Positions 22,861-50,438 of a stretch of DNA of 64,000 nt are shown in pieces. The stretch's first letter is position 1. Each line of letters begins with the position of its first letter. Both the position numbers and the translations under genes were made by a program. Source of the stretch: an uncultured Cytophagia bacterium (GTDB taxonomy: Bacteria; Zhuqueibacterota; Zhuqueibacteria; Residuimicrobiales; Krinioviventaceae); assembly GCA_964399735.1 (NCBI GenBank), contig CAYNSO010000001.1, forward strand, positions 85,559 to 149,558, written 5' to 3'. The notes beneath the pieces were generated by a model that saw nothing but the letters and a program-made list of their open reading frames with translations, was not told the origin of the DNA and did no database searches.

Positions 22861-22884
22861 CGATATCTCAATTTCCCTTATCAA

Positions 22885-24468: not shown

Positions 24469-24499
24469 TTTTACCTCCTTGATTATGTGAGTTGTATGT

Positions 24500-31000: not shown

Positions 31001-31390
31001 TAAAGTATCTTCCATGGCAAATTTTTTGCGGGCCATCGCCCAAAATCGTTTATCCACGCCATTGAGCTGCACATGATTCACCCGGTTTTGGCCGCCTCCT
31101 GTCATAGCAATTCCTTTTAATTGCAAAACCGGGGCGGTTTGCACCTGCAAGTCAACGCCAATTTTGGTTGCCAACTCGGCGCGAACATGGCGTTCGCCGC
31201 TGTTCATAGCAAATTCAGTTTTACCAAGCCGGTTTAAAGTCATTTGTTTGAGGCTATAGCTGACCGAATCGCCAATAATCAGCGCTCCGGTCAAAATACC
31301 ACAACTTAGCATCGTTCCAAGCATAACCGGTAAATGCTGGCGTTTAAAGTAAAATAAAAAACTGTTTTTTATCAATCGCAATAACGTCAT
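28085..31390 (-). CDS. Large ABC permease with two FtsX modules (YbbP/MacB-type, 1101 aa)
   Basis: Two FtsX-type TM bundles (around ...GLENRAAETGLLLGIGF... and ...NVLERRSELALLTAVGY...). Each is preceded by a large extracytoplasmic domain. Confidence 0.8.
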   Translation of the reverse strand: MTLLRLIKNSFLFYFKRQHLPVMLGTMLSCGILTGALIIGDSVSYSLKQMTLNRLGKTEFAMNSGERHVRAELATKIGVDLQVQTAPVLQLKGIAMTGGGQNRVNHVQLNGVDKRFWAMARKKFAMEDTLLDQVAINVHLARKMSLKINDELILRVNKINYFPLDAPFARDMQKSAALRVTVSAILDDRQFGSFGLQNSQVPPYNVFIPLPTLQNAVDSQDQVNMILVANNNSRTVELDQVNSALRTNFNLADASLTTRHDLFTNTQELISSRVFIEPVIIDAINQTGLKYNGFFGYFVNQIQSNGNTTPYSFISAPGLPLVPEKMPDSCIILNQWAADDLQASIGDKIIIDYYIIGSGRDIVQQSTQFTLYSVVPMQGRALDKNLVPQFPGLVDAENCRDWDPGIPIDLDKIRKKDEDYWDSFRGTPKAFVTLAQAQKMWGNRYGNLTLVRFSNTKYHQAQIDSAIRVNLKPETAGLFFAPVLADGLQASANAQDFGELFLGLSFFIIVAGLVLTGLLVTFGLENRAAETGLLLGIGFTNMQVKTLFFIEFLAVAVPGALAGILFGIVYNQFVLWALGSLWKDVVGEPLLMLDLQPQTLLTGFLITLVVVCSIIAFILFKQTMKSITDLQHGTSRYQSAFTKKSLLISRLIAAVSLSGVLIILLLSGPGRGKEAAGVFFGAGTLLLIAAVSWCNIYLVNLQKPANKTNLTLLRLGILNSSRNKKNSLAIITLLACGIFLVIAQGANRHGTLLNADKRDSGTGGFAFWGETVSPILHNLNNEKGQAFLNMPPEEAALVKFVQCRLKEGDEASCLNLNMVRQPKILGVPAYEFDNRNAFTFIKTIPGVNAEHPWLALNHTRGENIIPAIVDQTVLTWNLYMEIGDTLYYQSENGDSLKLYIIGSLANSLFQGHVLISDSLFTAKFPTIGGYKVFLADAPQSLRTTVEKELNFSLQNYGLELVTAPQRLAAFNKIENTYLSIFLSLGGLGLLLGSIGLGIVVVRNVLERRSELALLTAVGYKQTDIYKYLLSEHLFLLLAGVVAGSVAALISILPVFSTPGAQPPTLSIIITILSLLACGFLWIYLAVKLALHQNLLPALRSE

Positions 31391-31395
31391 GGTGG

Positions 31396-32112
31396 CTATT
31401 TTTCCCGGGTTAAATGTCCTTCTTGCAAATGATAAATGACATTCATTTTATCCGCTAGTTCAGGCGAATGAGTAACCATAATCAAAGTCAAATGAGATTT
31501 TTGTTGTAAATTTATTAATAATTCAACAAGATGAATGGATGATTGATGATCCAGCGAACCGGTCGGTTCATCGGCAAGCAACAGTTTGGGTTGATTGATC
31601 AGCGCCCGCACTACCGCAACCCGCTGGCATTCTCCGCCTGATAATTGTCCGGGACGGTGATTGAGGCGATCTGCAAGTCCAACACTTGTGATTAAAAGCA
31701 GAGCTCGTTCCCGTGCGGAGAAATAGTCCGGCTTTTTTTGCGCCAGAACCGGCACCAGGACATTTTCAAGCAATGTGCATTGCGGAAGTAGATGATGCTG
31801 TTGAAAAATAAAACCGATTTCCCGGTTACGAACCGCAGCCAGTTGGTCATTATTCAAGGTAGACAGATCAAAGCTATCTAATAAAACCTGACCGGAAGAT
31901 GGTCGATCAAGAGCGCCAATAATGTTTAGCAAAGTACTTTTACCGGATCCTGAGGGGCCGATAATTGCAATAGATGCACCGGTATCGGCAGTGAGGGAAA
32001 TATCGTCAAGAACAGTCAAGCCTGCAGGATTATCCGGGATTGAATATGTTTTTTTTAAATTTTTAATTTCGAGCAACACTTGAAAATTCCTTGTTTTGAG
32101 ATACTTGATCAA
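31396..32112 (-). CDS. ABC transporter ATP-binding protein (YbbA/LolD/MacB type)
   Basis: Walker A GPSGSGKST, signature LSGGECQRVAVVRAL, Walker B LLLADEPTGSLD. Confidence 0.92.
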   Translation of the reverse strand: MIKYLKTRNFQVLLEIKNLKKTYSIPDNPAGLTVLDDISLTADTGASIAIIGPSGSGKSTLLNIIGALDRPSSGQVLLDSFDLSTLNNDQLAAVRNREIGFIFQQHHLLPQCTLLENVLVPVLAQKKPDYFSARERALLLITSVGLADRLNHRPGQLSGGECQRVAVVRALINQPKLLLADEPTGSLDHQSSIHLVELLINLQQKSHLTLIMVTHSPELADKMNVIYHLQEGHLTREK

Positions 32113-33404
32113 GTTACAAATTTTTTATATACTTGTTCCATCGCCAGCGCCATTTTTTCAATATTAAAAAGTGCGGAAACATTCCGGGCGCCTTGCTCTC
32201 CCAGGGTTGCTGCATAATTATGATCGCTTAATACTTTTTTTAATGCTAAAGCCAGACCGGCCGGAGTTTTGTCACTATAAATCAGTCCGCCGTTGGTGCT
32301 GGCAACCAACTCGGGAAAAGCGCCGATATTGGGTTGAACAACCGGTACGCCGGCAGCAAATGCTTCGATCAGATAGGTTCCAAAAGCCTCTCCATTAAGA
32401 ACGGGTACAGACAGAATGGTAAGCGACTGTAAAAACTTACGACGTTGTTCATGATCAAAGCCGGTGTAAATTGTAATATCATTACCAAACCCGGCTGCAA
32501 TAAATTTGTGTTGTTGTTGTTTAACAAATTTTTCGTTATTGGCTGTATATCCGCCCATCAATTGGAGTTTAATATCTTGAAAACTGTGGTCTTTTTTTAA
32601 CAACAGACAAGCATCCGTCAAAAGGTCAAGACCTTGAGCCTTGCACAAACGCGATAAAAAACCGATAACCGGAGGATTAAATGGCAGAGGATTCGGAGTA
32701 AAATCAGCGAGGGGGATGCCAATATAGATTGTATGCAGTTTATCAGCCGGAATTTGTATTTTTTTTTGCATTTCAGCTGCCCAGTAGTGACTAACAGCAG
32801 TGAATGCAGCAACATCACGGCCTTTTTCTGCCATCAGGTCCCAAACCCGTTGCTGGAATTGCGGCGCCATGGGATTGATCCACTGATCTTCATCCTGCAA
32901 AGAACAAAAAACCGGAATATTGAGATCGTGTTTAATTTTTGAGGCCAACCCCAGCAACAGAGCATTGGATAAATGTACGACATCCGGTTTTTCATGGTTT
33001 TTTAACCAATTTATCAGGTGCTGCAATTCTGTGGCCTGGTTTCCCAGTTCACCTTGCAGCATGGAAATGGTCATATCCTCCATACCGGCAGCGTTTGTTG
33101 ATCCGGCCTTGTGCGCGGCCATGTTAAGCAGAATTTTTGAATCCATCAGCCTTTCCAGCCACAGCGGCGCTTTGCGATAAAGCGGCATAACCTGTTTCAA
33201 ATAAGTGTTGATCGCCCCGTAAAAAACCGGCGTATCGCCGAAATAGTTTTTCTCCGGTTCATCAATGTTGACCGGTAAATACATAGGCACAATTGCAACT
33301 TCATGTCCGCGTTTACGCAGCTCTTTAACCAAAGAGTTATCGCGCATGCAATTCTGGCAATAAAAAGAATCTCCCGAACCCGGTACAATATGCACAATTT
33401 TCAT
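32109..33404 (-). CDS. GT-B fold family-4 glycosyltransferase
   Basis: C-terminal donor-binding region GEAFGTYLIEAFAAGVPVV. N-terminal MKIVHIVPGSGDSFYCQNC. 431 aa. Confidence 0.8.
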   Translation of the reverse strand: MKIVHIVPGSGDSFYCQNCMRDNSLVKELRKRGHEVAIVPMYLPVNIDEPEKNYFGDTPVFYGAINTYLKQVMPLYRKAPLWLERLMDSKILLNMAAHKAGSTNAAGMEDMTISMLQGELGNQATELQHLINWLKNHEKPDVVHLSNALLLGLASKIKHDLNIPVFCSLQDEDQWINPMAPQFQQRVWDLMAEKGRDVAAFTAVSHYWAAEMQKKIQIPADKLHTIYIGIPLADFTPNPLPFNPPVIGFLSRLCKAQGLDLLTDACLLLKKDHSFQDIKLQLMGGYTANNEKFVKQQQHKFIAAGFGNDITIYTGFDHEQRRKFLQSLTILSVPVLNGEAFGTYLIEAFAAGVPVVQPNIGAFPELVASTNGGLIYSDKTPAGLALALKKVLSDHNYAATLGEQGARNVSALFNIEKMALAMEQVYKKFVT

Positions 33405-34555
33405 TCTGCATCTCCAAAAGCATAAACCTGACCATCTTCTGCACCGATTAAAATCATACCATTAACAACTGCCGGAGATCCGGTAATGGAGCTAACCAGA
33501 TCATAAGACCAAATTAATTCACCAGTAACGAGATTTACCATGTATAAATTTCCATCTGCGGAACCGAACACAACTTTATTGTCGCATATTACCGGTGAAC
33601 TATCGACTTCATCACGGGTGTGAAATATCCACATCATTTTACCGGAAGCACGGTTCAGGCAGTGCAAATTATTATCGCGCGAACCAATGACCACATATTT
33701 TTCATCAACTGCAGGAGAAGAAAAAAATGGTGCGCTGTTTTGCTCGCTCTGGTATTCCCATAAAAGTTTGCCGGTTTTAATATCAATGCAAATCACTTTT
33801 TCATCATAATGCCCCAGGTAGGCAAAATGACCTGCAAGCGCCGGAGAAGCAGCGATATAGGAATCAGTATTGACGGCATTAATTTTTTCCCCACTGGCAG
33901 CGTCAATCACATAAAGCTGTGCATCGCAGCCGCCAAAAATAATTTCTCTACCATTTGTCGCCGGAGCGCCATTAATAAAATTTTCAGTAGGAAAAGTCCA
34001 AACCGGGTTCCCGGCCAAATCTACGCAGTGCATTACATTATCATAACTGCCAACAATAATCCGGGCAGCCTGTTTGTCATTCCCGGCGATATAATTGGCG
34101 GATCCCATAATGCGGTCGCCGGTTGGATATACCCAAATTGAATCGCCTGTAAAAGCGTGCAACGCATAGAGGTTATTATTCATTGAGCCGATAAATACCA
34201 GGGTATCATAGACCACTGGCGGCGCTTCAACAGCATCACCGGTATTGAAACTCCAGAGTTGAGCGCCGCTGTTGATATTTAACGCATACAGGTAGCCGTC
34301 GTTTGAACCGATATAGACAATAGAATCCAAAATAACCGGTGATGAGGTGATTTGATCACCAGTTTTGAAGGTCCATAATAATTTCAGGGAATTTGATAAC
34401 GCGCCGGCAGCGACTCCTGATAAACCGGAATCTCCGCGAAAGATTTGCCAATTATCGGAGCCGGATGTATTGGCGTCCCCGGATTTTTTACCGGATTGGC
34501 AATGCAGCAACATGATTATGACCAAAAAAAGAAATAATTTAAACAACTTTATCAT
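33401..34555 (-). CDS. Exported PQQ/BamB-like beta-propeller (signal peptide, possible lipoprotein)
   Basis: Signal peptide ending ...MLLHC. Repeated blade motif of the A.D..TG...W type (ALNINSGAQLW, ALHAFTGDSIW, CIDIKTGKLLW, MVNLVTGELIW). N-proximal WQIFRGD. Confidence 0.8.
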   Translation of the reverse strand: MIKLFKLFLFLVIIMLLHCQSGKKSGDANTSGSDNWQIFRGDSGLSGVAAGALSNSLKLLWTFKTGDQITSSPVILDSIVYIGSNDGYLYALNINSGAQLWSFNTGDAVEAPPVVYDTLVFIGSMNNNLYALHAFTGDSIWVYPTGDRIMGSANYIAGNDKQAARIIVGSYDNVMHCVDLAGNPVWTFPTENFINGAPATNGREIIFGGCDAQLYVIDAASGEKINAVNTDSYIAASPALAGHFAYLGHYDEKVICIDIKTGKLLWEYQSEQNSAPFFSSPAVDEKYVVIGSRDNNLHCLNRASGKMMWIFHTRDEVDSSPVICDNKVVFGSADGNLYMVNLVTGELIWSYDLVSSITGSPAVVNGMILIGAEDGQVYAFGDAE

Positions 34556-36132
34556 TTTTCCTCACCTTTTTTTAAAGCCAGTGCGCCGGTCGGACAATGA
34601 ATGACACATTCTGCCGCCACCCGGCTCAATCCGGCAGCCAGTTCATGATTAAAGGGAATACCGATTTTCACATTAAAACCGCGACCGATAAACGTTAATC
34701 CCAGTTTCTCTGCCGATTTTTCTGTGATCTGCACGCAAATACCGCATTTGATACATTTGCCGGGCTCGTAAATAATAGTTTGATGTTGATCGATCAATTC
34801 AACAGGCTTGCGATTTATGTTGGAATAACGTTTCTGATCGGCGCCATATTCCTGTGCATATTGTCGTAATTTACAGCCTTCCGGTTTACGGCAATCGCAT
34901 CGCAGGCACCGCGAGGCCTCATAAACTGCCTCTTGCGCAGAAAAGCTACCGGATTGCGTATCGGCCGGGAATTTGCCGGAACCGGGATTGACCAAAGCCA
35001 GCATGGCTTGCAAATCCTGCTGTGTAAGCTTGCCAATGCTTGAATTAAAACGACCCGGCAAAGGTTCGATTTGCTGGTTTGATAAATACTGATGCACCGA
35101 ATGAGCGATTGTTTTGCCTTGAGCTACCGAGCGGATTGCCATACGGATTTCCCGCACCGCGCTGCCTCCGGCAAAAACGCCTTTAACGCTGGTAACAAAA
35201 GTTTTTGAATCGACGGAAAACCCTTTACCGGAGATAATTTCAATGCCAAATTGTCCGGCCAGAGTTTCATCAATAACACCGGTCGCCAGCACAACAGCGT
35301 CATATTTTTTTAAAAGTTCAGCAAAAAGAATATCCTGGCCGATGGTTTGTTGAAAAATAAACTGCGCACCGAGCTTGGCAATGCCCGCAATTTCTTTGTC
35401 CAATACATCAGCCGGACATTTTGCAGGATCGATGCCATAGCGAAGCGTCCCTCCTGCCAGTCTGTTTTTATCGTAAATATCACAGGCGTGGCCGAGTTGC
35501 AGCAAATGATATGCGGCAGCCAGGCCGGTTGGGCCGGAGCCGATAATGGCTACTTTTTTACCGGAAAAAGGTGCACATTCCGGGATAAATTCAGCGGTAG
35601 AGTTTAAATCTGCATCAGCGGTAAAACGCTTTAACAAGCAAATGGAAACCGGTTCATCAATTCTGGCCCGATTGCATACTTTTTCGCAGGGCGCGGGGCA
35701 TATCCTGCCTAACACAGCCGGTAGAGCAATGTCTTTTTTAACTGTACGAATGGCGTTATCCAGTTCACCTGCGGCAATTTGCCGTAACATTTGCGGAATA
35801 TTCATGTGTGCCGGGCAGCCTTTTTGACACGGCGCTTCACAATCACCAATATGCTCGCTAAGCAATAATTCCAGGGCATCGCGACGGGCGGCTTGCACCT
35901 CATCCGAGTCGGTGTCGATAACCATGCCCTCCTGTACTCGCGTAGAACAGGATGGCAATAACCGGCCGCTTTTATGGTCTTTAACAACGCAAACCATACA
36001 GGATGTAAACGGTTCCAGTCCCTCCATAAAACACAGAGTTGGAATGGTTATGCCGAGTTGTTTTGCTGCCTGTAAAATTGTGGTCGAGTCCGGGACTGTG
36101 ATTTTGCAACCATTTATGGTTATCTCGTGCAT
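34552..36132 (-). CDS. Fusion of 2Fe-2S ferredoxin, GltD-like NAD(P)H flavoprotein and C-terminal 4Fe-4S domains (NfnB/StnC-like)
   Basis: N-terminal NuoG-type 2Fe-2S region (TLCFMEGLEPFTSCMVCVV). GltD-type cluster motifs GDCEAPCQKGCPAH and GRICPAPCEKVC. Dinucleotide fold KKVAIIGSGPTGLAAAY. C-terminal CLRCDC, CIKCGICV and IHCPTGAL. Confidence 0.85.
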   Translation of the reverse strand: MHEITINGCKITVPDSTTILQAAKQLGITIPTLCFMEGLEPFTSCMVCVVKDHKSGRLLPSCSTRVQEGMVIDTDSDEVQAARRDALELLLSEHIGDCEAPCQKGCPAHMNIPQMLRQIAAGELDNAIRTVKKDIALPAVLGRICPAPCEKVCNRARIDEPVSICLLKRFTADADLNSTAEFIPECAPFSGKKVAIIGSGPTGLAAAYHLLQLGHACDIYDKNRLAGGTLRYGIDPAKCPADVLDKEIAGIAKLGAQFIFQQTIGQDILFAELLKKYDAVVLATGVIDETLAGQFGIEIISGKGFSVDSKTFVTSVKGVFAGGSAVREIRMAIRSVAQGKTIAHSVHQYLSNQQIEPLPGRFNSSIGKLTQQDLQAMLALVNPGSGKFPADTQSGSFSAQEAVYEASRCLRCDCRKPEGCKLRQYAQEYGADQKRYSNINRKPVELIDQHQTIIYEPGKCIKCGICVQITEKSAEKLGLTFIGRGFNVKIGIPFNHELAAGLSRVAAECVIHCPTGALALKKGEEK

Positions 36133-38480
36133 GATTCCACCTCAACAGCGTTAGTTGGACAAACCTGGCGGCAGGTGTCGCACCGTATGCAGACCGTTGC
36201 ATCGATAACATGTTTTTGAAAAGGGGTATAAGCAATGGCATTAACCGGACAATTTTGAGCGCAGCGGGTGCAACCATTGCAGTTATCATTGATTTGATAA
36301 GTGATCAGAGCTTTGCATTTTTTTGCCCGGCAATAGCCGCGGATATGTTCATCATATTCCTGGCGAAAGTATTTCAGAGTAGTAAGAACAGGATTCGGAG
36401 CGGATTTACCCAGCCCGCACAGACTCCCCTGACGAGTTTTTTCAGCCAAATGTTCAAGGTTTATAATGTCCTCATCAGTACCTTTGCCGTCACAAATTTT
36501 TTCCAGAATATCCAGCATACGCCGGGTACCGACGCGGCAAAAGGTGCACTTGCCGCAAGATTGATCCTGGGTGAAACTCAAAAAATAGCGGGCAATATCG
36601 ACCATGCAATCATTTTCATCCATCACCAGCAGTCCGCCGGAACCCATCATTGCACCAACGCCGGTGAGGGCTTCATAATCGACGCCAATATCGGCCAGTT
36701 CAGCCGGCACACAACCACCGGAAGGCCCGCCGATTTGTACGGCTTTGAAGCGTTTACCGCCGGCAATGCCGCCGCCAATATTTTCAACAATTTCACGGAT
36801 AGTAATGCCCATCGGCACTTCAATCAGACCGCCGCGGTTGATTTTGCCTGCCAACGCAAATACCTTGGTGCCTTTGCTGCGCAGTGTTCCCAATTTGGCA
36901 AAACTCTCCTCGCCATGACGGAATATCCACGATACCTGCGCAAAAGTTTCGGTATTATTGACCAGGGTTGGCTTGCCCCACAGGCCGTGTTCCGAAGGAA
37001 ATGGCGGACGAATACGCGGCATACCGCGCTTACCTTCCATCGAAGCGATTAAAGCTGATTCTTCCCCGCAGACAAACGCCCCGGCGCCTTCCTTGACCTG
37101 CAGGTTCAGAGAAAACGAACTACTAAAAATATTTTGACCCAATAACCCCGCCTGGCGGCATTTTTCCAGCGCTTCATTGATCCGACGCACCGCCAGTGGA
37201 TATTCGGCGCGGATGTATAAATACCCGGTATGCGCGCCCACCGCATAAGCGCCAATGATCATGCCCTCGATAATGCGGTAAGGATATGATTCCAGCAACA
37301 TGCGGTCCATAAACGCGCCGGGGTCGCCTTCATCGCCATTGCATATAATGTATTTATCCGGGCCGGGTTGGACCTTAACCAGGTCCCATTTCATTCCTGT
37401 GGGAAAACCAGCGCCGCCGCGGCCGCGCAAGCCGCTGTTCTTGACTGTAGCAATCACTTCATCAGGGGTAGAGTGCAGCAGGCATTTTAAAAGTGCGTCA
37501 AAACCGCCATGTTGTCGGTACTCTTTGAGATCAAGCGGGTCGATAATGCCATGATTTTCTGTGGCAATATGTACCTGTGGCCCTAAAAATTCCGCCACAG
37601 GTTGATCGCGCATATCAAGCGGATATTTTTTTATTTCTGTATCGGCCCGGTCAGCAATCAGAGAATCCATAAATCGGTTTATTGATCCTGTAATACTGTA
37701 AATACCTTTAGGCCGAAAATGGTTATGGATGATATCCGGAATTTCATCGGGCTGTACTTTATTATAAACTATCGGTTTTTTGCCCGGCAGGGCAATCTCA
37801 ACCAGCGGGGTTTGATGGCACATGCCCACGCAGCCGACGCGTTTGACATTTATATTGATATTTTGTTCACTCAGAGTCTGCAACAACACTTCCTGCACTT
37901 TGCCGCTGCCGCTGGCAACACAGCAAGAACCCAAACCGATGCGGATTTCCCCTTCTTGGTGCACATAATTGATGGGTCTTTTTGTTTTGTTTATGCCGGT
38001 TTTACGGACGAATTTACTAAAATCCTGGATAATGCCGGGTATACCTTCCGGCTGCACGTGACCATAAGTGACGCTGTCAATTTGTACCACCGGCGCCAGA
38101 GTACAGCACCCCAGGCATGCGACTTTTTGCAAGGTATACTTTTTAAAAGGATCGGTATCCGTCACCGGGTCGGTTTTTAAATAGCGTTGAAAAGATTCAT
38201 ACACCAATTCTGCGCCTTTAACATGGCAAGCTGTGCCGATGCAGACATGGATGGTATGTTCGCCCACCGGTTGATGGCGGAATTGCGAATAAAAAGTTGC
38301 TACACCGGTAATGGAAGCCGGGGTGATTTCGCTTATTTCACATACACGCTGTAACGCTGCTTGTGGCAAATAGCGGTATTTGTGTTGAATAGCCTGTAAA
38401 ATAGGAATGACAGCATCCGGGCCTTTGCCAATGGTTTCGACTATATGGTCAATATCGTGTAAATGTAATTCGTGCGTCAT
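36120..38480 (-). CDS. Fused NuoE-like and NuoF-like NADH/FMN iron-sulfur flavoprotein (HydC+HydB or StnA+StnB-like)
   Basis: NuoE-type 2Fe-2S (CIGTACH...CLGCC), then a second thioredoxin-like 2Fe-2S domain (GSCCVASG...GCVGMCH). FMN site GRGGAGFPTGMKW, GDEGDPGAFMDR, N3 cluster SCGKCTFCR...CGLG. C-terminal 2x[4Fe-4S] (CNGCTRCAQNCP, CIRCDTCRQVCP). Confidence 0.9.
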   Translation of the reverse strand: MTHELHLHDIDHIVETIGKGPDAVIPILQAIQHKYRYLPQAALQRVCEISEITPASITGVATFYSQFRHQPVGEHTIHVCIGTACHVKGAELVYESFQRYLKTDPVTDTDPFKKYTLQKVACLGCCTLAPVVQIDSVTYGHVQPEGIPGIIQDFSKFVRKTGINKTKRPINYVHQEGEIRIGLGSCCVASGSGKVQEVLLQTLSEQNININVKRVGCVGMCHQTPLVEIALPGKKPIVYNKVQPDEIPDIIHNHFRPKGIYSITGSINRFMDSLIADRADTEIKKYPLDMRDQPVAEFLGPQVHIATENHGIIDPLDLKEYRQHGGFDALLKCLLHSTPDEVIATVKNSGLRGRGGAGFPTGMKWDLVKVQPGPDKYIICNGDEGDPGAFMDRMLLESYPYRIIEGMIIGAYAVGAHTGYLYIRAEYPLAVRRINEALEKCRQAGLLGQNIFSSSFSLNLQVKEGAGAFVCGEESALIASMEGKRGMPRIRPPFPSEHGLWGKPTLVNNTETFAQVSWIFRHGEESFAKLGTLRSKGTKVFALAGKINRGGLIEVPMGITIREIVENIGGGIAGGKRFKAVQIGGPSGGCVPAELADIGVDYEALTGVGAMMGSGGLLVMDENDCMVDIARYFLSFTQDQSCGKCTFCRVGTRRMLDILEKICDGKGTDEDIINLEHLAEKTRQGSLCGLGKSAPNPVLTTLKYFRQEYDEHIRGYCRAKKCKALITYQINDNCNGCTRCAQNCPVNAIAYTPFQKHVIDATVCIRCDTCRQVCPTNAVEVESCTR

Positions 38481-38486
38481 GTTTTA

Positions 38487-40196
38487 TTACTTTGCTCCAA
38501 TACAATACAGGTTTTCCGAACCGCGCAGATAAAGACGTTCTTCCATGACCACCGGTATAGCGCTGGTCTCTTCACCTAACGGCATCGATCCAACCGGATG
38601 GAATTCCTTATCCGCTTTAAAAATTTGCATCACGCCATCCAAATCCATAATATAAACATTATCGCCAATTAATATCGGTGAGGAATAAAAGCCCTGGTCA
38701 AAATCGTGCAGCCAGTATTTTTCACCGGTTGTGGCGTCCAGGCAGGTCATGGCGCCATAGCTGGTGGGAATAAACAGGTACTCCGGTGTAACAAGCAGAC
38801 TTGCGGCATCGGGCAGGTCATCGTTAAATTCCCAAACGATTTCCGGGGTTTCACCAGGCTTAATGGCAGCCAGGCTTGCGCCTTCGTTACCGGCATAAAC
38901 AAAACCATTCCCATAGACCGGTGATGAGCCCACTTCGCCGCCAAGACATTCCATCCGCCATAATTCTTTACCGGTTTCCGGATTATACGATACCACATTC
39001 GGGTTGGCGCTGAGGATCAGTTCCCAGTGGCTGCCGGTATTGGCGAGAATCGGTGAAGCCCATGAGAGCCCCATATCACGCGGGGTAATCCATTCTTGTT
39101 TGCCGGTAGCTGCCTGTAATGCCATTACTGCGGCTTTGCCGGCATGGTCATATTGAATAAGCAGCAGATCGCGGTGCATAATCAGAGACGAAGAATGCCC
39201 GTAATGGTTTTCCGGTACGCCAAGGTTTTTTGCCCAGATTTTATTACCTTCAAAATCAAAACATACCACATCACCGTTGGCAAAAATTGCAAAGACATAA
39301 TTACCATCCGTGGTCATGGTGGGGGCAGCATAGCCGGTATCATCAGCAACTTTTGGTGATTCAGCCGGCGAGCCGGGTATGCCAGTTACATCACGCTGCC
39401 AAAGCAGATTGCCGGTTTGAGCGTCATAACAATAGACCTGACGTGTGGTTTCATCCGCGCCGCTAAAAAATATTTTATCATTCCACATTATCGGTGAATT
39501 CAGACCAGGCAAGGGTATGGGAGATTTCCAGATAATGTTCTCACCGCTTTCACCATCCCATTGCTGTGGAGCAGTGGTTAAGTGGGCAATTCCAAGTCCC
39601 CATGGACCGCGAAAGCCCGGCCAGTTCTTTTCAATATCGCTTGTTTCAGGAATTTTATAGTCGACCGATGCAGACGGCATTGATGCCGCCGGTTGAGCAA
39701 ACGCCGCTGTTTTCATCTCTTGCCGGGTTAACAGCGCCAGGGCGGTAACTGAAATGAATAAAATGATTCCAGACAGAGCTACCCATTTTTGCGTAAGTAA
39801 ACGCATTTCCCAGCTATTGCCTGAGGTTTTCGGTAATTCGGGGTATTTTATAGTCATGGAACGAATTGATTTAATGGCCACTAACAGGATCACCAGGGCT
39901 GCCAGCAACATATAGCCGCCAAAGTTGATCTGCCACTGCCGGGTAAAATATGCCTTGCGAGCCAGTAAATCCAGGGCACGAATTTGCTCGCGCAATTCAG
40001 CATTGTTGGGATCAGCATCGAGTTGGATATACAGCTTTTCCAGCGCCGGGCTTTCCAGGGGTGGATTGGCTTTTAATTGTAAATAATTGAGTATAAAAAA
40101 AGCGCTGATCAGAATGATAAATGCCGCGGCAATGATCGCAATTCTTTGCAGCAGATTTTGTGCAGCAGGAATGTTTTCAGAATTAAAAAATTTCAA
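38487..40196 (-). CDS. PQQ/BamB-like beta-propeller anchored by three TM helices
   Basis: Three hydrophobic helices in the first ~165 aa, then WPGFRGPWG and repeated A.D..TG...W-type blades (CYDAQTGNLLW, ALQAATGKQEW, SYNPETGKELW, CLDATTGEKYW). Confidence 0.8.
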   Translation of the reverse strand: MKFFNSENIPAAQNLLQRIAIIAAAFIILISAFFILNYLQLKANPPLESPALEKLYIQLDADPNNAELREQIRALDLLARKAYFTRQWQINFGGYMLLAALVILLVAIKSIRSMTIKYPELPKTSGNSWEMRLLTQKWVALSGIILFISVTALALLTRQEMKTAAFAQPAASMPSASVDYKIPETSDIEKNWPGFRGPWGLGIAHLTTAPQQWDGESGENIIWKSPIPLPGLNSPIMWNDKIFFSGADETTRQVYCYDAQTGNLLWQRDVTGIPGSPAESPKVADDTGYAAPTMTTDGNYVFAIFANGDVVCFDFEGNKIWAKNLGVPENHYGHSSSLIMHRDLLLIQYDHAGKAAVMALQAATGKQEWITPRDMGLSWASPILANTGSHWELILSANPNVVSYNPETGKELWRMECLGGEVGSSPVYGNGFVYAGNEGASLAAIKPGETPEIVWEFNDDLPDAASLLVTPEYLFIPTSYGAMTCLDATTGEKYWLHDFDQGFYSSPILIGDNVYIMDLDGVMQIFKADKEFHPVGSMPLGEETSAIPVVMEERLYLRGSENLYCIGAK

Positions 40197-40199
40197 TAT

Positions 40200-41486
40200 T
40201 TATACTCCTTTTAACTCATGTAAACGTTCATGTTCCTTCGGACAAGAGGTAAAACAACGCCCGCAACTCAAACAATTAGCCCGATCGGGTTCATAACTTG
40301 TGTGCCGCCGCCAGAATTGCAAATAAATTAGTTTCATCATAAACACCAGGGCGATAAATGCACCCAAAACCCATGAACCGGTTTTGAATTTTTTTTGTAC
40401 CTGTGCAGCTTGCTGATACAACACGGATGTCGGCGTTCCGGCGCTGCGAAAGGCTTTACTGTCGTCGGTGATGACACTGGTTTGCCCTGTATCTTCAAGA
40501 CGGATCTGCTCGGCAAGCTGAACAATGTAATGTTCGCGTGAAAGCAATATTGATAAACGCGAAAATGACCAGGCGCTGATCACGAGAATTACCGGGGTAA
40601 GCGCCAGCAGCAAGAATAACCTGCGCCGGGTTTTAGCCGGTTCACCGGGGTATTTATCGGGTGTAGGAATCTGAATGGCCTCGAACGGACAGGAATCAGC
40701 ACATAAATGGCACTGGATACATTCGTTCGGAGTGATGGTTGCGTGCCGTTTTGAGAGCATCGACAGCCATTTTAGCAGCACACCAAATGGACATAAAAAA
40801 CGGCAGTACGGCCGCGCGATGAACATACCGGTAATAATTATGACAATACTGAAAATAAACATTCCTTCATTAAAACCGAACCGGAAAAAACCGACGAATG
40901 GGTCAAACCGACAGATCAGATAACCTGCGCCGGTGGCTGCATAAAGTACAGCAAAACCAAGATAGAGATAGGGTATCAAGCCCAGTACCTGATTCAGCCA
41001 GGCAGGTATTTTTTGCGGCCGAACAATCACGGCATCTTGAACAGCGCCCAGGGGGCAAACAGCGGCGCAAAATGTGCGGCCAAAGAACAAGGTGAAAATT
41101 AATGGTAAAATAAAAAATACCACTGCAGATAATGGAATAATGTAGGTTGAATCAAACAACGCCGTAGTTACATTTTGAATAGAGCCGACCGGACAGATAC
41201 AACCCTGGCGATGAAAACCAAAATACCAGAGAGAAAACAACATCAAGGCAAATATCAATTTGCGGGAGCGACGTCGCAACACCAGCCAGGAAGAGAGCGA
41301 CAGTGTCAGCAATAACACCGTCATATCGACATATTGCCAGGTATCGGCGCGGGGAGTTGGACTGGTCGGTACCGGCTGTATATACCCTGATTCAAAATCC
41401 GGCCGCGGGAAACGTTGTTCAACAGGAAGGCAAAAGTGGTTGCCTATCGCCAATAGTACCAATAAAAAAAAGAGACCCTTTTTCAC
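40200..41486 (-). CDS. NapH/NosH-type integral-membrane polyferredoxin
   Basis: Multiple TM helices carrying CxxCP-type motifs (GCICPVGS, FCAAVCPLGA, YCRFLCPFG). Two ferredoxin motifs CIQCHLCADSCP and CLSCGRCFTSCP are separated by two extra TM helices. Confidence 0.8.
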   Translation of the reverse strand: MKKGLFFLLVLLAIGNHFCLPVEQRFPRPDFESGYIQPVPTSPTPRADTWQYVDMTVLLLTLSLSSWLVLRRRSRKLIFALMLFSLWYFGFHRQGCICPVGSIQNVTTALFDSTYIIPLSAVVFFILPLIFTLFFGRTFCAAVCPLGAVQDAVIVRPQKIPAWLNQVLGLIPYLYLGFAVLYAATGAGYLICRFDPFVGFFRFGFNEGMFIFSIVIIITGMFIARPYCRFLCPFGVLLKWLSMLSKRHATITPNECIQCHLCADSCPFEAIQIPTPDKYPGEPAKTRRRLFLLLALTPVILVISAWSFSRLSILLSREHYIVQLAEQIRLEDTGQTSVITDDSKAFRSAGTPTSVLYQQAAQVQKKFKTGSWVLGAFIALVFMMKLIYLQFWRRHTSYEPDRANCLSCGRCFTSCPKEHERLHELKGV

Positions 41487-42088
41487 GATATTTCTCCGTT
41501 TACCGGATTTGGCAGTTCCGAACTTGCTACGCCGCCGCGGAACAGGTATGGTTTATTGGCAGGCACACGCACAAAGGCATCTGCAGGGCAGCTTTTGGCA
41601 ATGGCACATTCATTACAATTGACACAACGGTCGTGCCGAACCTGTAAAAAAAGCGAACCATTGCCGAAGGAGTCACAACCTTTTACGCATTTGGCACAGC
41701 CGATACATAATTCTTCATCTATAGTATATTGAAAATATGGTTCCTCAATAAAAGTACGTTTTATAGCGCCGGCAGGACATTGCTGGCTTTCTGCAGCCGT
41801 ATCCAGATTTTTTACACCAGGTCGGTGATAGCCGCCACACAGATCGCAATAACCGCACATGGCATATTGATGCACGCATTTTACCGCCGAGGGACTGAGT
41901 ACACAATTGGTGGCGCAGCGTTCGCATTGAATACATTTATCGGGGTCGATTTGCCACACCAGGTTAGCCGGTGACGATTTACTCAGCGTTATTCCTGCCA
42001 GGCCGCCTATAGCCAGCGCGGCTGTGGTATGCAAACCTGCTTTAATAAATTGCCGGCGATGTACCGGTTTGTTGTCTTGTTCATTCAT
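41483..42088 (-). CDS. Tat-exported NapG/NosG-type ferredoxin with four [4Fe-4S]-type motifs
   Basis: Twin-arginine motif HRRQFIKAG followed by a hydrophobic region. Cys motifs CIQCERCATNC, CGYCDLCGG...CP, CIGCAKCVKGC and CVNCNECAIAKSCP. Confidence 0.85.
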   Translation of the reverse strand: MNEQDNKPVHRRQFIKAGLHTTAALAIGGLAGITLSKSSPANLVWQIDPDKCIQCERCATNCVLSPSAVKCVHQYAMCGYCDLCGGYHRPGVKNLDTAAESQQCPAGAIKRTFIEEPYFQYTIDEELCIGCAKCVKGCDSFGNGSLFLQVRHDRCVNCNECAIAKSCPADAFVRVPANKPYLFRGGVASSELPNPVNGEIS

Positions 42089-42114
42089 GACATGATCCTG
42101 TTACGAATATTTTA

Positions 42115-42315
42115 TTATCTACCGGGCATTTGTGCCGGTTGATGGGGACAATGACCGTTTTGTGAGCATCCGGCGCAGTCGCCTGGTGATGTACAGGGTT
42201 GTCCCTGGACTGATGGAACACTTTTTTTGCTCAGCAACAATGCCGCAAATACTGCCAACAGTGCAGCGGTTAAATATCTGATAATATCGGCAATAAATTC
42301 TCGTCGTGAGGTCAT
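42115..42315 (-). CDS. 66-aa protein with a twin-arginine-like N-terminus, one hydrophobic segment and a CX5CX2CX5C tail
   Basis: MTSRREFIADIIRYLTAALLAVFAALLLSKK then ...GQPCTSPGDCAGCSQNGHCPHQ. Its ATG overlaps the TGA of the upstream NHL gene (ATGA at 42312-42315). Coding status is inferred from this coupling and from the motifs. Confidence 0.5.
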   Translation of the reverse strand: MTSRREFIADIIRYLTAALLAVFAALLLSKKSVPSVQGQPCTSPGDCAGCSQNGHCPHQPAQMPGR

Positions 42316-43316
42316 ATTTTACCTGCAATTGAATTGTTATGTTGAAAAACCCGCACCACACGGGCGGACGGATCGAGAACATAGATACAATCATCGGTAT
42401 CAACGGCAACATCAAGGCCGACTGTGCCAGGGGTAAACAGTGATGGCGGCGCTACTATGCAAACAAATTGCCCGGCACGATTATAAACTTTAACCCGTTC
42501 CAGTCCTTTTTCCGCAGTGACAAACGAGCCATCAGACATCAGGGCAAAATGCGATGGATTACAGCAGCCGCTGAATCCTTCAATACCTATGGAGGAGATG
42601 CCCCAATGGGAGCGCAGCGCTCCTGTCGGGGTGTAATTTTCCAGCCTGAGCTTTCCGGTATTGACTGCCCAGATAAAACCGTCCTCATCCACAGCCACAT
42701 CAAAATAAGGGCTGGGAATCACGAAACCAATAATATCCCTGCTTACATCCCTCTCCCCTATCCGGTTCAGCAAATTTCCGTTTTGGTCATAACGAAGCAC
42801 AATCTGTTTACCGGCATCAGCGGCGTATACATTATCATTTAATGCAGCAATGGAAGTGATAAACGAATTGGCATGACAGGGCTGCCAGCGCTGTAATAAA
42901 GAGCCGGTGGTATCATAAATTTCGATATGATTTCCAACACCGGATAGAATGTTGAAATGTTGATCAACAGCAAGGCAGCTTATAGCATTGGCAGTTGTAA
43001 ATGAGCGTTGCAATTGGCCGTCCGGTGTGTAAACAAGAATACTGCTATCGCCGCTGACAATCAACCGTTTATCGAACGTTACTGCCAGAGCGCGGGGTTT
43101 TGCAAGATAGAGTTGAATTTTTCTGATTTGTGTATAGTGGATCAATTCCACCGGAACATGACGATAGGTTTCAATATCATATTCATAGGGATTATCGCTA
43201 GTCGGGGGAGTTTTACGGGCCAGGGAATGATAGCCCAACCAGGTAATACCAGTTGCAATAACAATCATAACCAGAATGGTTGTGATTGTTCGTATACCGG
43301 ATGATTGCCTGTTCAT
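42312..43316 (-). CDS. Membrane-anchored six-bladed NHL-type beta-propeller
   Basis: N-terminal TM anchor. Six units of the x-[IV]-x-[IVL]-[YF]-x3-G-x-[LF] type (ILVYTPDGQL, IEIYDTTGSL, VLRYDQNGNL, LENYTPTGAL, VKVYNRAGQF, VVRVFQ). GGAGGTGA RBS before ATG 43316. Confidence 0.7.
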   Translation of the reverse strand: MNRQSSGIRTITTILVMIVIATGITWLGYHSLARKTPPTSDNPYEYDIETYRHVPVELIHYTQIRKIQLYLAKPRALAVTFDKRLIVSGDSSILVYTPDGQLQRSFTTANAISCLAVDQHFNILSGVGNHIEIYDTTGSLLQRWQPCHANSFITSIAALNDNVYAADAGKQIVLRYDQNGNLLNRIGERDVSRDIIGFVIPSPYFDVAVDEDGFIWAVNTGKLRLENYTPTGALRSHWGISSIGIEGFSGCCNPSHFALMSDGSFVTAEKGLERVKVYNRAGQFVCIVAPPSLFTPGTVGLDVAVDTDDCIYVLDPSARVVRVFQHNNSIAGKI

Positions 43317-43419: not shown

Positions 43420-44835
43420 TTAAATCTCTATACATACCATCCTTTTTGAATCCCGCAACAACATACGACCATCGGCAACAGCTATCGGTCCCCAGGCGTC
43501 CGGGCCGTCCAATACTTTAGTTCTGGCAAGCTGTTTGTAGCCCTGGGTACTTGCCTCAATAACAGTCAGTTCACCTTCATCGCTGAGGATAAAAAATTTA
43601 TCATCGACAAAAATATATGGGCCCAGGCCAAAACGGTTGGTTTTATCGCTGCTCCATACATAACGTGTAATATCATCAGGGTTGCAGCAGACAAACTGGT
43701 TGCGCATTGGTCCGGCGTCTTTGGGCAATACACAGAATAGATGACCTTGATAAAGAATCGGAGTTTGCTGTTCGGATGACAGGCCGTCTTTCGGGAGCGC
43801 TTTGTGCAGGATATCGACAGACCATACATTATTTTCTTCTTTTAATTGCAACAACATCGAACCGGCGCCATATCCTGCGGTTACAAAAATTCGTCCATCC
43901 GGTATAAAAATTGGCGATGGCGCAATTACGTTATGGCTCCAGGCCGTAGATTGCCACAGGATCTGTCCTGCATCATTCCCTGCTGCAGAAATACCGGCAA
44001 TACCGCCGGTTGAACAATAGATATACATTTTTTTATTGTTAAAAGTAACCGGCATAACAGAGGAATGGGACATTTGCCAGTTGCCGGGATTCGGTACGCT
44101 CCATACAACCTGGCCGGTTTTGCAACTGACTGCAATGACCAGTGCATCACCGCCGGTTGCAATTATTGCCAGCGAATCGTCGATAAGCGGGCACTGACCT
44201 GTGTACCAGAGCGGCACCTGGGCATTATAATCCTGCACCAGGTCTATACCCCAGCGAAAATTTCCTGAATCGGCATCCACGCACATTACGTGGCATTGCG
44301 GGCCAATTGTTACCACATATTCATCGGTAACCGCTGGAACGGTACGGGACAAGCCATGATTTCTTTTCATAGGATTGCTATACCAGCGCCGCCATATCTC
44401 TTCGCCGGAGAGCAGTGAAAAACATCGCAAGGCATCGGCATGGTTGGTTTCATCATAATCCAGCACATAGACCCGCCCTTTATGAATGGCCGGCCCGGCA
44501 TGACCTTCGCCGAGTTCAACAGACCATAAAATTTTGGGGGAACCGCCAGCCCAGGCTATATTTGCTTTCTCATTACTAAAATTATCAAAATTACTGCCCC
44601 GGAATCGCGGCCAGGAACCCTGCAACTGCCCGGCAACTCCGTTAAAACGCTGAAAGAACTCACCAATTTTTACTGCCGATGCTGATGAGTTGGATCGTTG
44701 CGGACGATTATCCATTCCGGGAACATTTTCGGTAAAGCGAGCGGTGGGATCATAAAATAACCAGAAACCGGTTACTCCGGCGGCGGATAGGATAAAGAAT
44801 ATAATTATAAATTTTATAACACGATTATAATTCAT
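43420..44835 (-). CDS. Membrane-anchored PQQ/BamB-like beta-propeller
   Basis: N-terminal signal-anchor helix. WPRFRGSNFDN motif. Blade motifs (CFSLLSGEEIW, CVDADSGNFRW, AVSCKTGQVVW). C-terminal ADGRMLLRD is shared with its paralogs. Confidence 0.8.
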   Translation of the reverse strand: MNYNRVIKFIIIFFILSAAGVTGFWLFYDPTARFTENVPGMDNRPQRSNSSASAVKIGEFFQRFNGVAGQLQGSWPRFRGSNFDNFSNEKANIAWAGGSPKILWSVELGEGHAGPAIHKGRVYVLDYDETNHADALRCFSLLSGEEIWRRWYSNPMKRNHGLSRTVPAVTDEYVVTIGPQCHVMCVDADSGNFRWGIDLVQDYNAQVPLWYTGQCPLIDDSLAIIATGGDALVIAVSCKTGQVVWSVPNPGNWQMSHSSVMPVTFNNKKMYIYCSTGGIAGISAAGNDAGQILWQSTAWSHNVIAPSPIFIPDGRIFVTAGYGAGSMLLQLKEENNVWSVDILHKALPKDGLSSEQQTPILYQGHLFCVLPKDAGPMRNQFVCCNPDDITRYVWSSDKTNRFGLGPYIFVDDKFFILSDEGELTVIEASTQGYKQLARTKVLDGPDAWGPIAVADGRMLLRDSKRMVCIEI

Positions 44836-44878
44836 AAATTTGAATTGTTATTGAGAAACGAAATAATATAAAAATTAA

Positions 44879-46218: not shown

Positions 46219-46243
46219 ACATAAACTCCACATAATTTTGATA

Positions 46244-49112: not shown

Positions 49113-49117
49113 TTTTA

Positions 49118-50377
49118 TTAATCCCTTTTAAATATCGTATAATCGGGTTCGTCATAGCCGGCTTTGCGGCCCCAATCCATTTCAACCAACGAACGTACCT
49201 TGATCGGCAGCCCGAACAAATTAATAAATCCCTTGGCATCGGTTTGGTCATAAACATCTTCCTTGCCAAAAGTCGCCAGTTCTTCACGATATAGCGAATA
49301 GGGTGATTTTACACCAGCAGACATTACATTGCCCTTATATAATTTAAATCGTACCGAGCCGGTAACATTTTGCTGTGTCGATTCCATAAAAGCATCGAGA
49401 GCCTCGCGTAAAGGCGTATACCATTCTCCGTAATAAACCAGTTCGGCATACTTGGGCGCCAGCATCTCTTTAAAGTGCATAATTTCACGATCCAGCACCA
49501 AACTTTCCAGTTCCTGGTGAGCGCGGTAAAGAATTGTACCGGCAGGGCACTCATATACGCCGCGTGATTTCATACCAACCAGGCGGTTTTCAACCAGATC
49601 AATTCTACCTATGGCGTTTTCGCCGCCGATGACGTTGAGTAACTGCACAAGCTGCACAGAATCCATGCGCGATCCATTAACAGCAATGGGCACGCCTTTG
49701 TAGAATTCAATTTCAACAAGAGTTGGTTTGTCCGGCGCTTGCTGCGGGGATTTGGTCATAACAAACATTTCATCTTTGGGTGCGTTCCATGGGTTTTCCA
49801 GGTCGCCGCCTTCATGACTGATGTGCCAGATATTGCGGTCGTTGCTGTATATTTTTTCTTTCGATACTGTTATCGGCACCTGGCGTTCTTCGGCGTAGGC
49901 AATTGCATCTTCGCGGGAGCGGATGTTCCACTCGCGCCAGGGAGCAATAACCCGTAATTTTGGGTTGAACGCCTTGTAGGTCAGTTCAAATCGTACCTGG
50001 TCATTTCCTTTACCGGTGCAGCCATGCGCCACAGCATCGGCGCCTTCGGCATTGGCAATTTCAACCTGACGTTTGGCAATTATCGGCCGTGCGAATGAAG
50101 TACCTAACAGGTATTTTTCTTCATAAACAGCCCCGGCTTTTAGTGTGGGCCAGATAAATTCTTCAACAAATGGTTTCCGTAAATCTTCAATATAGCATTT
50201 ACTGGCGCCGGTAGCAATAGCTTTTTCTTCAAGGCCATTCAATTCCTGGCCTTGACCCAAATCAGCGGCAAAAGCTATTACTTCGCAGCCGTAATTTTCC
50301 TTGAGCCAGGGAATGATGATTGACGTATCGAGACCACCGGAATAAGCAAGTACAACCTTTTTTACTTTCTGTGTCAT
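49118..50377 (-). CDS. argG: Argininosuccinate synthase
   Basis: ATP-PPase motif [22 protein letters not shown]. Confidence 0.96.
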
Positions 50378-50438
50378 TTTTTACTCCACTTTAAAATGAT
50401 AATAAATTTAATCCGTTAATACAAATTTTCAATAATAT

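Follow-up and report, generated by a model that had tools for sequence, protein, structure and literature searches.

A widespread locus combining NapGH/NosR-type iron-sulfur proteins with a Bfu-type flavoenzyme: a candidate electron wire across the inner membrane

Which partner is served by an exported ferredoxin and a membrane-bound polyferredoxin when no reductase is encoded beside them? The question is raised by four genes at positions 40,200 to 43,316 of a 64,000-nucleotide stretch from the genome of an uncultured Cytophagia bacterium (contig CAYNSO010000001.1; the whole stretch is called the window below), which encode an NHL propeller, a Cys-rich micro-protein, a ferredoxin with a twin-arginine translocation (Tat) signal and a polyferredoxin resembling NapH and NosR. 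A preliminary description made from the letters of the window had taken the last two as a NapG/NapH-like electron-delivery pair, had pointed to the quinol dehydrogenase role of such pairs, and had named the NHL propeller and the micro-protein as the best candidates for the acceptor or donor. Here, we find that the four genes belong to a larger conserved operon, a widespread and uncharacterised combination of a delivery module of the NapGH/NosGH/NosR type and a Bfu core, which may connect cytoplasmic NADH and ferredoxin with the propeller outside the inner membrane.

All four genes lie on the minus strand, in the order NHL propeller (42312-43316, 334 aa), micro-protein (42115-42315, 66 aa), ferredoxin (41483-42088, 201 aa) and polyferredoxin (40200-41486, 428 aa). 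Open reading frames and DNA bore out their positions and the tight packing that had been reported for them, with a 4-nt overlap (ATGA) between the first two, a 26-nt gap between the micro-protein and the ferredoxin, and a 4-nt overlap (GTGA) between the ferredoxin and the polyferredoxin. The run had been described as one of four genes; the packing in fact continues downstream into at least eight more, and after the polyferredoxin there are gaps of 3 and 6 nt followed by overlaps of 13 and 4 nt.

The four genes were found again in other genomes, inside a core of eight. We mapped the 14 proteins of the window onto 82 loci by tblastn and counted linkage as the number of loci with a gene over the number with enough flanking sequence; Pfam gene tables were made for four distant related loci. 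The core consists of a BamB-like propeller (PQQc), the NHL propeller, the micro-protein, the ferredoxin, the NapH/NosR-like polyferredoxin, a BamB-like propeller with three transmembrane (TM) helices (PQQtm), a NuoE-NuoF fusion and a truncated iron-sulfur (FeS) flavoprotein resembling NfnA, StnA and GltD. This order was kept in nearly all of 83 related loci (labeled L001 to L083), and, the micro-protein aside, the tblastn map shows it wherever a contig is long enough. Linkage to the polyferredoxin amounted to 82/82 loci for the ferredoxin, 70/71 for the NHL propeller, 65/68 for PQQc, 72/73 for PQQtm (directly downstream), 61/63 for the NuoE-NuoF fusion and 56/61 for the GltD-like protein. Because it recurs to this degree, above all for the ferredoxin, the NHL propeller and PQQc, the arrangement is not due to chance. 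Nor can it be a nap, nos, nrf or mau cluster disturbed by local rearrangement, since the same neighbors, none of them a reductase, are kept in 83 loci across many phyla, and no catalytic gene of these systems adjoins the pair in the four tabled loci, nor a nap, mau or nos catalytic subunit in the window. The observation that no reductase stands beside the pair thus extends to these relatives, and the four tables also contained no molybdoenzyme, NosZ, cytochrome or amine dehydrogenase.

The locus is broadly distributed. In a scan with one genome per species, polyferredoxin relatives appeared in at least 574 species, mostly represented by uncultured, metagenome-derived genomes, and among the 80 best species matches, from which the taxa were read, the core order spans at least ten phylum-level lineages. 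These include KSB1, Calditrichota, Aminicenantes/Acidobacteriota, Latescibacterota, Planctomycetota (Phycisphaerae, Sedimentisphaerales), Kiritimatiellae, Lentisphaerota, Bacteroidota, Poribacteria and Aegiribacteria. More than 4600 homologues of the polyferredoxin were found in the databases, the 120 best of which cover 93-100% of the query at 51-84% identity. In the plasmid database it matched only NosR/NirI, YccM and generic 4Fe-4S proteins, at 25-32% identity over no more than 47% of the query. A full-text literature search, with many subscription journals outside its coverage, returned no description of the locus. The carrier lineages overlap with sulfatase-rich polysaccharide degraders and putative mercury methylators of anoxic sediments; papers on hgcAB that name the same taxa also turned up in the literature, an overlap that may merely mirror a shared habitat. 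Cultured carriers exist, Ancylomarina euxinus of the Bacteroidota among them, which makes experiments feasible; the paper on the Black Sea isolate holds no electron-acceptor data for Ancylomarina. Isolates of Lentimicrobiales, possible further carriers, have also been described (PMC11129491).

The cytoplasmic end of the system is indicated by the last two genes of the core. The 786-aa product of the gene at 36120..38480 (minus strand), recognized by matches in Pfam, NCBIfam and PDB, comprises in order a NuoE-like [2Fe-2S] domain, a HydB-type N-terminal domain, the NuoF FMN/NADH site and a C-terminal 2x[4Fe-4S] domain. Its residues 178-782 align end to end with 9bov_B (Csac NfnB, E 7e-219; NfnABC entries 9BOV/9BP5), 9n5u_B (NfnB) and 8oh5_B (Stn), and these NfnB/StnB matches outscore hydrogenase HydB proteins and, by far, complex-I NuoF; for the N-terminal 170 aa, HydC, StnC and NfnC are the nearest matches. 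Because the two parts match in this way, the protein can be classified by sequence as a fused BfuC-BfuB core, within the definition of BfuBC. The cysteines of its C-terminal 2x[4Fe-4S] domain and its FMN/NADH motif are conserved at ≥95%.

The adjoining 526-aa protein (34552..36132, minus strand), assigned by its alignment to 9bov_A, is a shortened BfuA. It has a [2Fe-2S] site, further FeS clusters and a GltD-type FAD domain, and matches NfnA/StnA with an E value of 1e-101. Residues 4-296 correspond to 9bov_A 6-297 and residues 271-520 to 9bov_A 420-673, so that counterparts of 9bov_A 298-419 (the NADPH-binding Rossmann fold) and 674-1178 (the formate dehydrogenase [FDH]-like domain) are missing. 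The second GxGxxG of 4ylf_B (275-303) is likewise absent, and the FAD GxGxxG and the FeS cysteines are kept. The protein lacks the combination of a GltD-like FAD domain with an NADPH-binding Rossmann domain that marks a BfuA of the Nfn/Stn type, and the short form (431-563 aa) was found in all 57 sequences compared (the window and 56 orthologues). In NfnABC, electrons from NADPH enter at the FAD of NfnA and pass through the A-clusters to B1-FMN-C1, with NAD reduced at the FMN and ferredoxin through B3/B4 (PMC11829005). With the NADPH entry lost, the path of the third substrate must connect elsewhere, and the cytoplasmic FeS domain of the polyferredoxin would be the only conserved candidate for it in the operon. 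A quinol dehydrogenase role is not needed for the pair, since the cytoplasmic end is identified by the linked NuoE-NuoF fusion and NfnA-like protein.

What, then, is the polyferredoxin? It begins with a cleavable-type signal peptide, whose AxA-like site precedes an invariant QRFPxPxF, and is predicted to have seven TM helices. Its motifs had been reported as three of CxxCP type, which is only loosely right: there is one CxCP (GCICP) and there are two CX3CP, FCAAVCP (C140/C144) and YCRFLCP (C228/C232). Both of the latter flank TM helices; they do not vary among 49 sequences, and the motifs of NapH and NosR align with them. The two CX2CX2CX3CP motifs had been identified correctly; they run from C256-P267 and C405-P416, 138 residues apart, with hydrophobic helices at 290-308 and 373-391 between them. 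NapH has four TM helices, starts in the cytoplasm and ends in a compact 2x[4Fe-4S] domain, a plan from which the polyferredoxin departs, among other things by an extra TM helix. The splitting of its ferredoxin domain by TM helices, which had been noticed in the window, is real and family-wide in the alignment: the hairpin is conserved, and its loop is helical and some 64 residues long. With RRRSRK as the positive-inside loop, the two CX3CP motifs and the two ferredoxin half-motifs all come to lie in the cytoplasm, and a family-specific triad of cysteines (C96, C98, C192) falls in loops predicted to face the periplasm. All three are absent from the aligned stretch of E. coli NapH, and C192 from that of Paracoccus NosR.

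By family, the polyferredoxin belongs near NapH and NosR and is neither. It matched PF12801 (E 7e-16). Against the NapH/MauN families of NCBIfam it remained far under the cut-offs (TIGR02163 as the best match, 43.8 bits against 213.05; NF007013, 39.7 against 234), as it did for NosR/NirI (NF046105, 33.4 bits against 1000), and it gave no FMN_bind match to reflect the N-terminal periplasmic flavin-binding domain of that family. With BLASTP, E. coli NapH aligned over 235 aa at 23% identity (E 2e-8), and residues 118-282, the CX3CP core, aligned to Paracoccus NosR 500-675 at 29% identity (E 5e-16). No relative was found in PDB by sequence or by fold (best E of the model 0.54). In JGI entries the protein is often automatically named "NosR/NirI family transcriptional regulator," though it lies below the cut-off.

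The ferredoxin starts with HRRQFIK and a weakly hydrophobic h-region, and its 16 cysteines, arranged in four cluster-type motifs, are each conserved at ≥95% in 82 sequences (the window and 81 orthologues), enough for four putative [4Fe-4S]-type sites. The motif RRx[FLIVM][LIVMF] is present in 67 of the 82 as called; the other 15 are 13 fusions with the motif further upstream and two exceptions of start call or motif. From this conserved Tat motif, export to the periplasm is predicted, and the predicted topology is periplasmic rather than cytoplasmic, as had been expected. No other protein of the locus is as highly conserved (62-77% identity in the 120 best-scoring homologues); it has 6220 homologues at E<=1e-10, and its Pfam matches are to Fer4 families. 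At the level of sequence, the twin-arginine signal and the four Cys-cluster motifs put it in the functional class of NapG; the NapG family itself was not reached (NF007012, 17.7 bits against 269), and BLASTP with E. coli NapG gave only short Fer4 stretches (E 0.001). The description of the two proteins as a NapG/NapH-like pair therefore stands in the sense of a Tat ferredoxin with a polyferredoxin of the NapH/NosR superfamily, and falls short in that neither passes the curated NapG or NapH cut-offs. The best PDB match of the ferredoxin was weak, 9mqx_E, an FeS subunit from an entry with Bfu-like chains (9mqx_A, B, C). The JGI name for the ferredoxin, "electron transport complex protein RnfB," was given automatically, though the protein is under the RnfB cut-off.

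The micro-protein was as described: SRREFI, a hydrophobic segment and then C41-x5-C47-x2-C50-x5-C56. It belongs to no Pfam or NCBIfam family, and a Pfam scan of four such sequences at E<=10 gave only insignificant matches (FeoB-associated Cys-rich protein, NuoG 4Fe-4S). Most loci have, between the NHL and ferredoxin genes, a small open reading frame that combines RRxF with a TM segment and C-x5-C-x2-C-x5-C-x-[LP]P. In about 16 loci it is fused in frame to the N-terminus of the ferredoxin and replaces the ferredoxin's own signal, with the pattern MQNRRDFLN...TM...C-x5-C-x2-C-x5-C-xLP...VWQLDP.KCIQC; these come from Bacteroidales, Bacteroidota, Lentimicrobiaceae, Prolixibacteraceae, a Lentisphaerota locus, a Kiritimatiellae locus and one metagenome-assembled genome (MAG) labeled Pirellulales. 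These Rosetta-stone fusions show the micro-protein to be an added module of the exported ferredoxin rather than a substrate, and it plausibly carries a fifth cluster. Its candidacy as acceptor or donor was accordingly dropped, and so was that of a substrate or a peptide with a cofactor like tryptophan tryptophylquinone (TTQ) or cysteine tryptophylquinone (CTQ), for which it has no conserved Trp. In one Bacteroidetes MAG (L030, 9296-11281), the micro-protein, ferredoxin and polyferredoxin form a single open frame of 661 aa with no stop codons; being topologically inconsistent and found in one MAG only, it was set aside as a possible assembly error, though it might equally come from a sequencing error or be a genuine fusion.

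This leaves the NHL propeller, which is still the best candidate for the terminal partner. The anchored six-bladed propeller that had been proposed was recovered in an AlphaFold2 model (predicted local distance difference test [pLDDT] 89.9) with an N-terminal anchor helix and 24 strands forming six four-stranded blades. Foldseek returned the NHL domains of Thin, TRIM2 and Brat at the top, with E values of about 1e-16 (best 2.5e-16) and TM-scores of 0.66-0.82 to Thin and TRIM2; membership in the six-bladed NHL group is thus given by structure, the Pfam NHL match being sub-threshold (17.8 bits against 20). The anchor is of the Sec type and has no RR motif, so the protein cannot carry a cofactor assembled in the cytoplasm. 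Two long loops in blades 4 and 5 hold the most conserved residues, among them an invariant vicinal Cys-Cys, G-x-x-G-C-C-N-P (C251, C252), with GFCGCCNP in 54/75 sequences and GFSGCCNP in the window. Among the 75 motif instances there was no in-frame TGA variant that would point to selenocysteine at this site. The CC-N-P loop is the likely redox-active site, and a thiol/disulfide-type end reaction would be the simplest fit.

Taken together, gene content, linkage, family assignments, domain losses, fusions and motif conservation lead us to propose, with about even confidence, that the locus encodes a single complex acting as a membrane-spanning FeS wire from cytoplasmic NADH/ferredoxin to the Cys-bearing NHL propeller outside the inner membrane. 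We infer the complex as a unit, the direction of flow, the cluster bound by each set of cysteines and the thiol-based end reaction. In this scheme the Bfu core would oxidize NADH and, by analogy with all characterized Bfu enzymes, would exchange electrons with ferredoxin. The NfnA-like FeS/FAD subunit, its NADPH site lost, would hand electrons on to the split cytoplasmic 2x[4Fe-4S] domain of the NosR/NapH-like protein, from where they might cross the membrane by way of clusters at the two CX3CP motifs and the periplasm-side Cys triad. The Tat-exported four-cluster ferredoxin, extended by the Cys4 module, would take them up and pass them to the vicinal Cys-Cys loop of the anchored NHL propeller, with the BamB-like propellers as a possible periplasmic scaffold. 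The net result would be that reducing equivalents of NADH (and reduced ferredoxin) are exported to an acceptor outside the cytoplasm, which would give fermentative anaerobes an electron sink. Our guess, made with low confidence, is that this acceptor is a sulfur or disulfide-type compound, for example polysulfide or a disulfide of an organic molecule or a protein.

A more specific version, which we offer tentatively and consider doubtful, is that of an unrecognized extracytoplasmic reductase or respiratory complex, in which a confurcating Bfu core and an all-FeS conduit would feed a cofactor-less Cys-Cys site on the NHL propeller, beside the Tat-exported Cys4 cluster, for the reduction of an external sulfur, disulfide-type or metal substrate. 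If this were correct, it would be an electron sink for many abundant fermentative sediment lineages (FCB, PVC, Aminicenantes).

Several points weigh against the wire. The physical complex is a proposal drawn from the genes; the polyferredoxin gene is separated from the Bfu genes by that of PQQtm, and the cytoplasmic part is nowhere fused to the membrane part. For the polyferredoxin, the AlphaFold2 model reached only a moderate pLDDT of 73, and the protein belongs to the NapH/NosR superfamily, which has no solved structure and in which a membrane crossing by FeS clusters alone has yet to be explained; a quinone link as in NapGH is also possible. The fold search with the NHL propeller returned only generic, non-enzymatic NHL domains. 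Planctomycete micro-proteins are very basic after the TM helix (KRRRLVREGK), which could mean that they are oriented the other way, provided that this stretch is not a Sec-avoidance c-region. Finally, a conserved block with a glycosyltransferase and ABC/FtsX genes is unexplained by a purely respiratory role.

How far do known systems provide precedents? In NapGH (E. coli, Wolinella) and NosGH/NosR, a Tat-type four-cluster ferredoxin likewise stands beside a polytopic protein with two CX3CP motifs and a cytoplasmic CX2CX2CX3CP domain. Here, however, the polytopic protein has a signal peptide and seven TM helices instead of the four of NapH, lacks the flavin domain of NosR, and differs from both in the ferredoxin domain split by a TM hairpin with its conserved loop of about 64 aa; there is no NapA or NosZ partner, and a cytoplasmic NADH module is linked instead. 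The closest relatives of the cytoplasmic pair are NfnABC and StnABC (PDB 9BOV, 9N5U, 8OH5), from which it differs in that C and B are fused, A lacks the NADPH-binding and FDH-like domains, and the genes lie within a membrane/periplasmic operon. The idea of a BfuBC core docked on a membrane complex is the same as in the predicted membrane-bound complexes Mbh-Bfu and Nuo-Bfu of Schut et al. 2022 (PMC9304861), who also left 17 of 53 BfuB clades without assigned function. Those complexes use arms of the complex-I/Mbh type, where the present locus has a NapH/NosR-type FeS protein, a periplasmic ferredoxin and propellers, and that paper makes no mention of PQQ-type propellers or polyferredoxins.

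Other resemblances are looser. The fused micro-protein and ferredoxin have a layout similar to RnfB (N-terminal membrane anchor, Cys4 segment, polyferredoxin), but the rnfB hidden Markov model gave 20.7 bits against a cut-off of 68.7 and covered only the Fer4 stretch. RnfB is cytoplasmic, whereas the RRxF[LI] Tat motif points to the periplasm. The mau cluster of methylamine dehydrogenase has the NapG/NapH-like pair MauM/MauN in one operon with a beta-propeller subunit and a small exported subunit rich in Cys. Unlike it, the present locus has a micro-protein with no conserved Trp for a TTQ-type cofactor, a six-bladed NHL propeller and a Bfu module, and no mauG-like heme protein was found by Pfam in the window. 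In DsrMKJOP, Hmc and Tmc of sulfate reducers, a Tat FeS protein in the periplasm and another FeS protein in the cytoplasm, together with membrane subunits, link the redox reactions of both compartments. The likeness is in concept only, as their membrane subunits are unrelated (NrfD or cytochrome b), and heme and CCG-domain proteins are absent here.

The remaining genes of the operon bear on the alternatives. PQQc, the first gene of the invariant core (43420..44835, minus strand), encodes a BamB-like (PQQ_2) propeller (PF13360, E 7.6e-20) with an N-terminal anchor (TM helix at residues 9-27), and no relative was found for it in PDB by sequence. PQQtm (38487..40196, minus strand) is a BamB-like propeller (PF13360, E 2e-28) after three TM helices (19-37, 90-108, 139-157). 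Downstream of the core, an accessory block opens with PQQe (33401..34555), a secreted, possibly lipoprotein, BamB-like propeller (PF13570, E 6e-70, and PF13360), followed by a glycosyltransferase of family 4 (GT4; 32109..33404; PF00534 and PF13439, with only generic GT4 matches in NCBIfam), an ATP-binding cassette (ABC) ATPase of the LolD/MacB type (31396..32112; PF00005, and TIGR02211 at 244 bits, under its cut-off) and a duplicated FtsX-type permease of 1101 aa (28085..31390; PF02687 twice, ten hydrophobic helices, a weak match to the ADOP family), all on the minus strand. This block lies downstream of the core in most phyla and upstream, still adjacent, in Planctomycetota; it usually accompanies the core, and some loci are without the GT4 or without the block within the available flank. 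Upstream of PQQc, PQQb (44959-46266) and PQQa (46244-47476), both on the minus strand, encode secreted BamB-like propellers (PF13360), a kind present in zero to four copies in related loci depending on the lineage. The 123-nt gap before PQQc contains a terminator-like, GC-rich hairpin of 8 bp with a T-rich tail (44902-44879, minus strand), followed by a promoter-like site with a TATAAT box (44824-44851, minus strand; a consensus match only). These consensus matches suggest that the core operon starts at PQQc and that PQQa and PQQb form a separate transcript. A role of the propellers as PQQ dehydrogenases was rejected, because the best of the five reached 96.1 bits with TIGR03075 against a cut-off of 480.05 and the family is the BamB-type PF13360.

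Should the operon then be regarded as an envelope system? Periplasmic electrons could serve to make, mature or repair a surface component by disulfide reduction or by lipid or glycan modification; the GT4 would build the component, the ABC/FtsX proteins would extract or export it, and the propellers would form the assembly platform. This fits the way in which PQQe-GT4-ABC-FtsX stays beside the core even when transposed upstream in Planctomycetota, the LolD/MacB-like character of the ATPase, the BamB-like rather than PQQ-dehydrogenase-like propellers and, in one locus (L083), the hopanoid-synthesis genes abutting the core. However, some loci have the core without the GT4 or lack the block within the available flank, and a full bifurcation-type NADH/ferredoxin module would be a costly supply of biosynthetic electrons. 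To our knowledge, there is no envelope pathway with such parts, which we count against this explanation, and on balance we consider it unlikely. In L083 (521-6518), the genes directly upstream of PQQc, on the same strand and 8 nt away, encode radical-SAM, DUF116/polyprenyl synthase, prenyltransferase and squalene-hopene cyclase proteins.

The same complex might also run in reverse, as a module of uptake or energy conservation in which a low-potential periplasmic donor is oxidized at the propellers and the Bfu core bifurcates the electrons to NAD+ and ferredoxin. Characterized Bfu enzymes are reversible and often bifurcating, the closest relatives here being NfnABC and Stn, and the complete Bfu apparatus (C1 and B3/B4 cysteines) is conserved. 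Yet the midpoint of the NAD and ferredoxin couples is about -385 mV, and a donor around this value or lower would be required. No hydrogenase or formate dehydrogenase-like gene occurs at the locus (in the window and the four tabled loci), nor did the Pfam annotations of the loci examined show a CO dehydrogenase or another enzyme with a metal cofactor, and a Sec-exported NHL propeller cannot bring a cofactor assembled in the cytoplasm. Outward flow is favored because bifurcating uptake needs such a donor and no enzyme for it is encoded; we hold the reversed direction to be improbable.

Alternatively, two unrelated systems might simply be neighbors: a soluble Nfn/Stn-like flavoenzyme and a separate periplasmic quinol dehydrogenase of the NapGH kind, whose electrons would go to the propellers or to a reductase with its gene elsewhere. 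Quinol oxidation is the accepted role of NapGH and NosGH (reportedly treated by Brondijk et al. in 2004), the polyferredoxin has the CX3CP core of NapH and NosR, and no fusion bridges the two halves. This separation is decidedly improbable in view of the NuoE-NuoF fusion (61/63) and the NfnA-like protein (56/61), which follow the polyferredoxin in constant order and on the same strand across at least ten phylum-level lineages; moreover, the NfnA-like subunit, without its NADPH and FDH-like domains, has no evident substrate of its own, and no nap, nos, nrf or mau catalytic gene lies near any annotated locus. A role of the pair in redox sensing or regulation instead of electron conduction, in line with the first annotation of NosR and with the JGI name of many orthologues ("NosR/NirI family transcriptional regulator"), is hardly credible, the name being an automatic transfer, the polyferredoxin having no DNA-binding domain in Pfam or NCBIfam, and a 16-Cys Tat ferredoxin of such conservation (62-77% identity in the 120 best-scoring homologues) together with a Bfu core exceeding the needs of sensing.

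If the electron wire proves true, a hidden electron outlet would exist in KSB1, Calditrichota, Latescibacterota, Aminicenantes, Phycisphaerae, Kiritimatiellae, Lentisphaerota and marine Bacteroidales, a large set of anaerobes, cultured as well as uncultured, that are usually modeled as plain fermenters and whose energy metabolism and role in sediment redox would have to be reinterpreted. A Bfu-type flavoenzyme wired to a NapH/NosR-type membrane protein would be a new kind of Bfu complex, and it would offer a testable answer to the long-standing question of what partners the cytoplasmic FeS domain of NapH/NosR and by which route electrons cross the membrane in this superfamily. Thousands of entries now named NosR regulator, RnfB, NuoF/HndC, glutamate synthase small subunit or PQQ-binding protein would then become parts of one system.

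Some features of the surroundings may be added. About 5 kb past the end of the operon (FtsX, 28085) and outside the conserved locus, a gene at 21733-22884 (minus strand) encodes a multiheme cytochrome of 383 aa with matches to Cytochrome_C554, C7 and MtrC-like domains. Between them, at 23719-25825 (minus strand), lie an SPFH/Band-7 protein and its overlapping NfeD membrane protease-like partner, a common pair unrelated to the operon. The nearest genome matches were an unclassified MAG (81%) and a KSB1 MAG (67%). On the other side of the locus, uvrC-argG-argH adjoin it both in the window (47724-52280, minus strand) and in L001 (1-4165), which belongs to a 6.5-Mb genome with a polyferredoxin only 58% identical, so that within this lineage synteny reaches beyond the operon.

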